Part shown: in pieces, positions 10,456 to 11,682 of the stretch
How positions within the stretch are numbered: the first letter of the stretch is position 1
Layout: the number at the start of each line of letters is the position of its first letter
Assembly: GCA_934102215.1 (NCBI GenBank)
Contig: CAKOSH010000003.1
Span: forward strand, 59,187-123,186
Source: an uncultured Bacilli bacterium
GTDB lineage: Bacteria > Bacillota_I > Bacilli_A > RF39 > UBA660
DNA length: 64,000 nucleotides
Direction: 5' to 3'
Program-made: the position numbers and the translations under genes
The notes under the pieces: model-generated
The model's input: the letters and a program-made list of their open reading frames with translations, nothing else
Database searches by the model: none
What the model was told of the DNA's origin: nothing

Positions 10456-11682
10456 TTAGCCAATGCGGAAAGCTGGAGAAACACCATATACTCCAACTGC
10501 ATTGGAATTACTATATCTCCCAGTATTGCTCATGCGATAAAAAATATAGGCCATATTTGCAACAGCTGAACGTGTCCACCAGTATGTAGCACTTGTTCCG
10601 TTTTTCTTTATTGCTCCACTATATTTGCTAGTTGTAACTCCTAAATTTGTATAATAGTCTAATGTTCTTGTTAAATCTTTTGATGACTCGTTAGTACTAG
10701 ACCAATTAGTATATATTTCTTTTGTTGATAATAAATATAGTTTGTCACTTGATATAAAATTTTCCACATCTTTTTTACCATGACTCGATACTACTGTTGT
10801 ATCTATTATTACATTTTTTAAATCAGGTGGTAATGAATTATATATATCATTATTTATAAATGCTCTCATACTTGTTGCTGGCCAACCACCTAGACTTGTA
10901 TTTGTAACATTTATATTATGTGTTGTTATAATATCAGCAAACTCTAATACTAATCCACATGCTGTCTGTGAAAATCCTTCTGTACTACATTCGCTTGGCG
11001 TTGATGTGTTTGCTATACGAATGGTATGTGTTCCATAATCGTCCAAATTTATTTCTTTTGTATCGCCCACATTATAATTACTTATTTCGCCAATTTGTAC
11101 AAGTGCTTGAATAGTTTCCCACGAATCCTCTTTAAAAGAAATTGAAGTTGGTTTTTCATATTCTTCTATGCCTAATACACCACTAAATAATTTGTTTTTA
11201 TTGTAATTTTGTGATTCTCCTGTATCTATAAATGTTATTTTTATGCTATATTCATGTGTGTGTCCCGGTTGAATTGGTATATTTGAGATAATTTTTCCTT
11301 CTGCAACTGATTTATTTGGTATAGATTCACAAGTTCCTTCTTCCATATTATTTGAATTTAAGCTTTTACATTCTCCTTCAATAGTTAATTCATTTTTTAT
11401 AATTTCATTTGTTAATTTTTGCCATATAAGGTTATAATTTATTTCATTATTACCAGTATTTTTTACTGTAAATGTTTTTGTTACCAAATCGCCTGGAAAT
11501 GCATTATCTAATATTATTTCATTAGTGTCATTAAAAGTTAATTCTAAAGAACCAGTTGTTACTTTATTATTTTTAGCTGTGTCATTTCCTAAAACTTTTA
11601 ATGAAAAAAATGCTAGTGAAACACCAACTACTGTGAATAGTAACGATATCACTAGCAATATATATATCATCTTTTTTTGCAT
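10456..11682 (-). CDS. Secreted protein: TasA/CalY-like N-terminal domain plus Cys/Trp-rich C-terminal domain ending ...GVSPAFRIG (paralog of 29669..31003)
   Basis: N-terminal 170 aa about 60% identical to the 3780..5420 product; C-terminal 230 aa about 60% identical to the 29669..31003 product. ORF track start (11739) lies upstream of the promoter -10; ATG 11680-11682 (MQKKMIYILLV) with GAGGA RBS preferred. Confidence 0.75.
   Translation of the reverse strand: MQKKMIYILLVISLLFTVVGVSLAFFSLKVLGNDTAKNNKVTTGSLELTFNDTNEIILDNAFPGDLVTKTFTVKNTGNNEINYNLIWQKLTNEIIKNELTIEGECKSLNSNNMEEGTCESIPNKSVAEGKIISNIPIQPGHTHEYSIKITFIDTGESQNYNKNKLFSGVLGIEEYEKPTSISFKEDSWETIQALVQIGEISNYNVGDTKEINLDDYGTHTIRIANTSTPSECSTEGFSQTACGLVLEFADIITTHNINVTNTSLGGWPATSMRAFINNDIYNSLPPDLKNVIIDTTVVSSHGKKDVENFISSDKLYLLSTKEIYTNWSSTNESSKDLTRTLDYYTNLGVTTSKYSGAIKKNGTSATYWWTRSAVANMAYIFYRMSNTGRYSNSNAVGVYGVSPAFRIG

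Follow-up and report, generated by a model that had tools for sequence, protein, structure and literature searches.

Why do three dispersed genes of one genome share an N-terminal module, continue into different C-terminal modules, and each lie behind a promoter-like cassette with a run of guanines in its spacer? The question is raised by a gene at positions 10456-11682 (minus strand; p2) of a 64,000-nucleotide (nt) stretch of contig CAKOSH010000003.1 from an uncultured Bacilli bacterium (hereafter the window), and by its paralogs p1 (3780-5420, minus strand) and p3 (29669-31003, minus strand). A preliminary description had proposed that these genes encode TasA/CalY-like fibre subunits with swappable distal modules under phase-variable promoters. 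The explanation that we favour, with a probability of roughly 0.55 for the whole of it taken jointly, is that p1-p3 belong to a large multigene family of exported TasA-type surface proteins in small-genome, ~26% GC gut Bacilli ('Clostridium sp. CAG:524'-like metagenome-assembled genomes, MAGs), which would assemble into filaments and whose expression would be switched by poly-G tracts.

One N-terminal module and interchangeable C-terminal modules

Each protein consists of a TasA-type signal peptide, a flexible stretch followed by a predicted ~150-amino-acid (aa) beta-sandwich of the TasA/BsaA/CalY superfamily, and one or more interchangeable C-terminal modules. All three genes are open reading frames (ORFs) at the positions given above, and pairwise phmmer comparison of the first 185 residues confirmed their common N-terminal module (~170 aa in the preliminary description, ~175 aa here), with E ~1e-75 for p1 against p2 and ~1e-40 for p3 against either; a six-frame search of the 64-kb window found no fourth copy. 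The 408-aa p2, as delimited by its ORF, Pfam matches and an AlphaFold2 model, starts with a signal peptide (residues 1-24, 11611-11682) made up of MQKK, a hydrophobic helix and the predicted cleavage site VSLA↓FF. The TasA/BsaA-like N-module (residues 25-178, 11149-11610) opens with a disordered stretch (~25-38), a putative donor strand, and continues as an all-beta sandwich (40-175), and a linker with the DUF6273 module takes up residues 179-408 (10459-11148; all on the minus strand), the Pfam match covering residues 262-407. In p1 (546 aa), the N-module (residues 25-178, ~4887-5348) is joined to DUF285/PARCEL repeats, and in p3 (444 aa) to a DUF6273 module. The true start of p2 is the ATG at 11682; the TTG at 11739 falls within the promoter cassette described below (11708-11749) and is therefore not the start.

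The C-terminus of p1 matches DUF285, as had been described, with 205 bits (PF03382, E 2.4e-61), and PARCEL with 191.6 bits (TIGR02167, E 7e-58), over 9 stretches. The C-terminal halves of p2 and p3, which had been taken to share a domain, match each other with E ~1e-71 to 1e-73 and belong to DUF6273 (PF19789; p2 56.8 bits, E 3.3e-15; p3 52.8 bits, E 5.5e-14; gathering threshold 23.5 bits). The motifs AFFS, GNDTAK, PGD..TKT.SVKNTG, GFSQTACG, YWWTRSAV and GVSPAFRIG are all seen in the alignments. The preliminary description had likened the shared C-terminal domain to lectin-like DUF1566/Fib_succ_major domains. Neither of these families matches in Pfam or NCBIfam at E<=1, but the lectin-like impression was right in kind, because a C-type-lectin-like fold has been reported for DUF6273, a domain known from phage receptor-binding proteins (PMC10743442).

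A large family that shuffles the same modules

The wider search for family members that the preliminary description had called for, a scan of GTDB species representatives, yielded 194 tblastn-confirmed relatives. Their source MAGs, from the gut, carry the labels Clostridium sp. CAG:524, Bacilli, Mollicutes or Mycoplasmatota, and the complete 1.53-Mb MAG CP091739 has at least eight dispersed copies. A profile of members that combine the N-module with DUF6273 matched at least 6,674 clusters of a large protein collection at E<=1e-5; among the best 120 of those clusters, 118, of ~406-417 aa, carry both PF19789 and PF12389, and the two highest-ranking ones are longer and match PF19789 without PF12389. 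The architecture is abundant and automatically annotated in databases, where one member is named 'CalY family protein' by NCBI. The literature that we searched describes neither TasA-like subunits with native adhesin modules nor the poly-G promoter cassette, so that the architecture, earlier called undescribed, is so for that literature but not for the databases, which hold thousands of members.

Among 74 full or partial members, about 33 combine the N-module with DUF6273 and about 30 with DUF285, and both C-terminal modules follow it in L008 and L010 (L numbers denote loci of relatives). The N-module occurs alone, at 177-180 aa, in L062, L072 and L075-L077, is followed by an unassigned C-terminus in L063 and L078, and is accompanied by three Flg_new repeats in L090. 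The same DUF285 and DUF6273 modules also follow another kind of N-terminal module ('type B', MNKIVEVLKKYMYV..., no Pfam match), for which hhalign gives a 77% probability of relationship to the TasA-like N-module (E 2e-5). Type B modules with DUF285 and DUF6273 also stand behind the same poly-G cassette (in the metagenome loci L122 (4268-), L104 (781-), L119 and L081).

Single in-frame stops occur in family genes of MAGs (L001 at 9869, L002 at 10784, L036 and L070). Examples are a GGA to TGA change at the conserved glycine of PGD and a TAA within a DUF285 repeat, and the L001 allele is present on 4 contigs. This suggests that individual paralogs are recurrently inactivated. We rejected stop-codon reassignment as an explanation: translation table 11 gives normal readings of long ORFs, and frameshifts account for some other apparent cases.

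The best-documented occurrences of DUF6273 are those in phage receptor-binding proteins and in targets of diversity-generating retroelements (DGRs). In addition, p2 matches a Hoc-like PHROG (E 1.4e-7), p1 matches several PHROGs, and the stand-alone member in L062 lies beside Mob- and ImmA-like genes. All of this would fit an origin from phages or mobile elements, in which case the proteins would be receptor-binding or decoration proteins or superinfection-exclusion factors and not bacterial adhesins. We consider such an origin very improbable, since the window copies lie among housekeeping genes (glyS, a SepF-like gene, rpsB, tsf, dnaE, secA and murein synthesis genes) with no phage structural genes nearby, the copies in the 1.5-Mb genome of CP091739 are chromosomal and dispersed, and the proteins carry Sec/SipW-type signal peptides. 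Neither a reverse transcriptase nor a template repeat accompanies the genes. A ~72-nt stretch near the 3' end cannot be aligned between p2 and p3 and forms a hypervariable block near the DUF6273 C-terminus; diversification of this block by a DGR was rejected, as neither a template repeat nor another copy of the 3' region occurs in the window, and ORFs with reverse transcriptase motifs are absent from the window and from ~160 loci.

The N-module is related to TasA and resembles BsaA

The proposed TasA/CalY kinship of the N-module is borne out by Pfam PF12389 (Peptidase_M73; TasA/CalY/camelysin), which scores 36.1 bits in p2, 38.2 bits in p3 and 21.9 bits in p1, the last just under the gathering score of 22.5 bits, and is matched by 71 of the 74 relatives at E<=1e-3. 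The match spans residues ~15-85, starts inside the signal region and aligns only ~70 of the 196 model positions. The best PDB sequences for a profile of seven N-modules are those of TasA (5of1 and 8aur, E 0.0016). The longest alignment is given by NCBIfam TIGR04090 (BsaA, SipW-dependent matrix protein), which covers p1 residues 7-137 with E 1e-7; its scores (p1 32.0, p2 22.9, p3 17.5 bits) lie below the curated cutoff of 60 bits. TIGR04088, a profile named earlier for checking the relationship, does not match p1-p3. By score, the N-module is thus placed in the Pfam TasA/CalY family but not in the BsaA family, whose cutoff it does not reach, and it is not encoded in the canonical operon.

An AlphaFold2 monomer model of p2, built from an alignment of 124 family sequences from database proteins, predicts a helix at residues 2-24, low confidence at 19-37 and an all-beta domain at 40-175 with a predicted local distance difference test score (pLDDT) of 80-95. 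The C-module was modelled at pLDDT <50, probably because the alignment was too uniform. A Foldseek search of the full model against the PDB returned only weak, generic beta-sandwich matches, and the sandwich is much smaller than that of TasA.

Across the 74 sequences, D52, P63, K69, N75, C105 and C118 are invariant (D52 and K69 each in 74/74), K37 is K in 64/74, and N33 is N in 61/74 (82%) and Q in 6. BsaA polymerises by donor-strand exchange, with an E56-catalysed isopeptide bond linking N35 of its donor strand to K74, and it still presents a FAST domain at the cell surface when this is fused to its C-terminus (PMC11580942). The spacing of N33, D52 and K69 from the predicted cleavage site is close to that of N35-E56-K74, and we put forward, as a hypothesis from these positions, that the two triads are equivalent; TasA, which has no such lock, likewise has an acid and a Lys at the positions aligned with the D52/K69-type residues.

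Signal peptides, SipW homologues and proposed filament assembly

The signal region combines a charged n-region with a helix of ~20 residues and an A-[YWF]-F motif that is almost invariant: A24 is present in 67/74 relatives, an aromatic residue at position 25 in 73/74, and F26 in 73/74. The predicted cleavage site reads SLA↓FF or SYA↓YF. TasA, as a SipW substrate, has F at P2' (PMC10269814). With Ala at P1 and an aromatic residue at P2', the signal peptide of the family appears by motif to be of the SipW type, in keeping with the signal class first proposed. Neither of the findings that would have spoken against the preliminary description, an N-domain unrelated to TasA/CalY or a missing functional signal peptide, was made.

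The window contains one SipW-family homologue (655-1125, minus strand), whose start overlaps the stop codon of secA (1122-3668, minus strand). It matches the SipW model weakly (NF046067, E 9.5e-4) and is a pseudo-peptidase: the catalytic Ser is lost (VDSDIYEP), as is the catalytic His, and the whole protein contains no His. An exhaustive search found 130 homologues, 86 of which were aligned; 59 of these match the SipW model and 50 match TIGR02228 (archaeal-type signal peptidase I). Both the catalytic Ser (SGSMEP) and the His (THR) are kept in 46 of the 86, and both are lost in 35, a set that includes the window protein and most of its nearest relatives. In relatives (L160, L162-L164), the order is dnaE - sortase - variable surface gene(s) - secA - sipW* - spoIVA - uvrA, with sipW* the homologue in question. 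The secA-sipW* pair is therefore probably a core feature and not an export system dedicated to p1, and the secA beside p1 is probably a housekeeping gene. An accessory SecA2 dedicated to the family was rejected, because none of 78 loci searched by tblastn has a secA close to its family genes. We regard sipW* as a conserved pseudo-signal-peptidase partner of SecA, whose action on the p1-p3 family is uncertain. An active SipW (QTGSMEP, THRI, GDNN) lies directly upstream of a family gene in L055, and further SipW-like ORFs are found in family neighbourhoods of relatives.

The main rival to filament assembly is that the N-module forms a monomeric, non-polymerising stalk, which would either be tethered by an uncleaved signal-anchor helix or be released as a soluble lectin-like protein. 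Such a stalk would suit the loss of catalytic residues from the only SipW homologue of the window, the long hydrophobic helix, and the small sandwich with its generic structural matches. It would also suit the lack of other anchors: p1-p3 have no C-terminal LPXTG/NPQTN sorting signal, their C-termini (...PAFRIG or ...YFTLKTN) including no hydrophobic segment, and no lipobox, their signal regions being free of Cys. The window also contains no stand-alone major subunit. We nevertheless judge a monomeric stalk rather unlikely, given that nearly all members keep the A-[YWF]-F cleavage-type motif, that active SipW genes adjoin family genes in relatives, and that the monomer model shows no structure for the stretch after the helix, where N33 and K37 are conserved, as would be expected of a donor strand.

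The best indirect argument for filament assembly comes from the C-module. L162 encodes a protein that starts with a canonical type IV prepilin leader (MKKKGFTLVELL...) and whose C-terminus shares 54% identity (E 2e-84) with residues 180-408 of p2, the C-module. By analogy, the pilin N-terminus, a known filament-incorporation module, appears to hold the place of the TasA-like module in this fusion, which argues that the TasA-like module is likewise a filament-incorporation module and speaks against a mere stalk. The pilin-fusion gene has no poly-G cassette.

A poly-G tract in the promoter spacer

Upstream of p1-p3 lies a common cassette, (G)AAYAnnTGTTY-GC-TTGCGG-(G)n-TAATwTwTGC-TATAMT, followed by a ribosome-binding site (RBS) and ATG. 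Each gene is predicted to be transcribed from this cassette, which has an extended -10 element (TGn) and the poly-G tract between -35 and -10. The p2 cassette (11708-11749, minus strand) comprises the palindrome GAGCATTTGTTT (11738-11749), the -35 hexamer TTGCGG (11730-11735), a G8 tract (11724-11731), a 16-nt spacer and TGC-TATAAT with the -10 at 11708-11713. The p1 cassette (5449-5490, minus strand) has GAACAAATGTTT at 5479-5490, TTGCGG at 5471-5476, G8 at 5465-5472, a 16-nt spacer and TGC-TATAAT at 5449-5454, and the p3 cassette (31031-31071, minus strand) has GAATAAATGTTC at 31060-31071, TTGCGG at 31052-31057, G7 at 31047-31053, a 15-nt spacer and TGC-TATACT at 31031-31036. The phase-variable promoters of the preliminary description thus have a concrete counterpart: the three tracts are the only runs of at least seven Gs in the 64 kb (5 overlapping matches against 0.19 expected from 100 shuffles, none of which reached 5).

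Over 30 sites in relatives and metagenomes have copies of the cassette, with about ten in a single human-gut assembly, and some copies precede type B genes. For spacer measurement, the -35 was taken as the TTG hexamer abutting the tract and the -10 as the best TATAAT-like hexamer. At 24 sites with a pure tract, the spacer is 16 nt (15 sites), 15 nt (4 sites), 17 nt (2 sites), or 13, 19 or 20 nt. Pure tracts range from G6 to G13, with G7-G13 in the parsed table and a G6 cassette in L059. Where the tract is interrupted, eight of the nine tabled copies have a spacer of exactly 17 nt (L002, L003, L045, L048, L053, L054, L081 and L152), and the ninth, in L127, also has 17 nt if TTGCGG is taken as the -35; L090 was tabled as interrupted through the parse alone and carries a pure G9 with a 19-nt spacer. 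Tract lengths also differ between paralogs of one genome (CAKOHK01 G7/G13, CAKOLO01 G9/G10, CAZYRI01 G7/G8, and G8/G8/G7 in the window), the polymorphism being one between loci and between assemblies. The spacer pattern resembles what would be expected of sigma-A promoters with a slippery homopolymer in the spacer, and promoter-spacer homopolymers are an established mechanism of phase variation, as in Neisseria porA and opc and Mycoplasma vlp.

Alternatively, the poly-G tract may be a fixed element of the promoter or of an operator, for instance as part of a regulator site that also includes the palindrome, and the length differences may reflect old divergence or assembly error. The uniformity of many copies fits such an element: a 16-nt spacer, mostly with G8, is common to 15 of the 24 pure tracts, including at least ten loci in one metagenome assembly, so that the tract is not wildly variable at the consensus level. 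In assembly OIZL01, G8 with this spacer is found in all pure-tract copies recovered (~ten). Homopolymers are moreover error-prone in assemblies, and the conserved palindrome abuts the -35. We think a fixed element unlikely all the same, because G runs of this length are otherwise absent from the 26% GC window, lengths span 6-13 and vary within single genomes, the known systems named above set a precedent for switching, and the nearly constant 17-nt spacer of interrupted runs is expected if spacer length is selected and pure runs drift around it.

The palindrome itself is GAAC-N4-GTTC-like (Cheo/LexA-box-like) and lies 2 nt upstream of the -35. It is perfect in L084, L100, L107, L122 and others and degenerate in the window, where no perfect GAAC-N4-GTTC occurs anywhere in the 64 kb. 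It is possibly an operator or activator site. Its identification as a LexA/Cheo box, which it resembles in relatives (GAACAAATGTTC), was rejected for the window, for want of a perfect copy there, and is kept as a lead.

A model for the family

In the favoured explanation, the proteins would be exported by Sec and cleaved by a SipW-type peptidase after A24/A25. In the manner of TasA and BsaA, the freed N-terminal strand would then insert into a neighbouring subunit's sandwich, and an N33-K69 bond might lock it in place. The resulting homo- or heteropolymers would display their binding modules, lectin-like (DUF6273) or PARCEL, at the cell surface, where they may serve in adhesion. Slipped-strand changes in tract length would shift the spacer around its 17-nt optimum and so switch each paralog ON or OFF, or tune it, independently of the others, and a population would hold a varying mix of adhesin specificities.

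Several observations pull the other way. Beside the inactive SipW homologue, the missing stand-alone subunit and the many 16-nt spacers already mentioned, there is no tapA-sipW-tasA-like operon, and the lectin-like fold of the C-module rests on Pfam and the literature because its model failed. A generic sigma-70 scan does not call the three cassettes, because TTGCGG, a weak -35, matches only 3/6 of TTGACA. Some of the length differences come from CP091739, in which several family genes look frameshifted and which we suspect to be a long-read assembly prone to homopolymer errors.

A bolder version is that the family represents a new class of Gram-positive filament, in which every TasA/BsaA-like subunit carries its own binding module, of lectin-like or repeat type, in a 'bottle-brush' or mixed-subunit fibre, and the independent poly-G switching of about ten paralogs per 1.5-Mb genome makes the composition combinatorial; export might involve the translationally coupled pair of SecA and catalytically dead SipW. 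We offer this version tentatively and hold it to be doubtful.

TasA-family fibres are known as plain structural biofilm scaffolds. If the favoured explanation is true, a fibre subunit natively fused to interchangeable binding modules would mean that TasA-type assembly also serves adhesion, a use comparable to that of modular type IV pilins or of FimH. The family is abundant, its hosts are uncultured gut Bacilli with reduced genomes, and the poly-G cassette provides a testable prediction of phase variation in human gut commensals.

Genomic setting

The window has ~26% GC and a strong strand bias. Near p1, a class B sortase gene (5500-6438, minus strand) contains a single in-frame TAA (5971-5973), at what we take to be the position of the conserved Gln that follows PVV in sortase B. 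Its orthologues in L162-L164 are intact (252 aa), and the interrupted gene may be a pseudogene, a strain variant or a sequencing error. The slot between sortase and secA is occupied by p1 in the window (3780-5500) and by the pilin-DUF6273 fusion with one or two MucBP proteins in L162-L164 (1338-5551), and looks like a hotspot for surface-gene exchange.

Upstream of p3 lies a small hydrophobic ORF, MSKKDFLISFLLVIIFVLLFIIISLIFAN (31385-31475, plus strand), with a good RBS. It is bracketed by a 27-nt imperfect inverted repeat (31323-31349 and 31504-31530), has a similar counterpart in L018, and could encode a small membrane peptide or be a type I toxin-like gene. Elsewhere in the window are a gene for a Cys-rich CotZ-like spore coat protein (40781-41233, minus strand; Pfam E 6e-13) and three consecutive pseudopilin-like genes (50264-52632, minus strand), one with an N_methyl match. 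With spoIVA in L162-164 and Spo0A in L001, this ~1.5-Mb, 26% GC lineage appears to keep sporulation genes. The 413-aa pseudopilin-like protein (51391-52632) was considered as a relative of DUF6273 or of the L162 fusion and rejected: it has no detectable similarity to them, and its large C-terminal domain has no family match. The sole Rfam match of the window at gathering score is a ribosomal protein L21 leader (RF00559, 45.3 bits) at 46212-46288 (minus strand).

Comparison with known systems

TasA of Bacillus subtilis and CalY of Bacillus cereus resemble the p1-p3 family in the signature G.L.L...PGD..TK.....N.G, the aromatic P2' residue of the signal peptide, the beta-sandwich predicted here by the model and the PF12389 match. 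They differ in that the core here has ~150 aa against ~234 aa, with the first ~70 model positions aligned, and in that the p1-p3 family has large C-terminal modules and dispersed paralogs, each with a poly-G promoter, in place of a tapA-sipW-tasA operon. BsaA of Clostridium perfringens, a matrix pilin that requires SipW and whose donor strand is exchanged and then locked by an isopeptide bond, shares the longest profile alignment (p1 7-137), a disordered N-terminal segment that here is a putative donor strand and, if the hypothetical equivalence of the triads holds, the placing of N33/D52/K69; it also tolerates a surface-displayed C-terminal fusion. However, p1-p3 score far under its family cutoff, and the bsaA gene belongs to a sipW-bsaA-bsaB-bsaC operon, its product naturally lacking a C-terminal module.

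The closest functional analogues would be modular type IV pilins and the two-domain tip adhesins FimH and PapG. Modular type IV pilins, such as PilB and PilC of Streptococcus sanguinis, consist of a pilin N-terminus with a grafted functional module. Like them and the L162 fusion, which bears the very same DUF6273 cassette at 54% identity, the p1-p3 family would combine a filament-incorporation module with a grafted binding module, but its incorporation module is TasA-like, and the L162 gene lacks the poly-G cassette. FimH and PapG of chaperone-usher pili have the reverse domain order, unrelated secretion and assembly machinery, and Gram-negative hosts.

With regard to switching, Neisseria porA (poly-G) and opc (poly-C) and Mycoplasma hyorhinis vlp (poly-A) vary in phase through homopolymers between -35 and -10. 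The p1-p3 family shares with these systems the position of the homopolymer, a spacer around 17 nt, the multigene surface family and the small genome; it differs in its host, an uncultured gut Firmicute, and in the extended -10 and upstream palindrome, and its switching is predicted from promoter sequences. As for the C-terminal modules, phage receptor-binding 'tentaclins' and DGR targets (PMC10743442) likewise have a DUF6273 domain with a hypervariable segment near the C-terminus, whereas here it is mounted on a TasA-like N-module and has no reverse transcriptase or template repeat beside it. Similarly, the DUF285/PARCEL surface lipoproteins of Mycoplasma (PMC2996958) contain the same Pfam domain as p1, which has no lipobox and carries the repeats on a TasA-like N-module.

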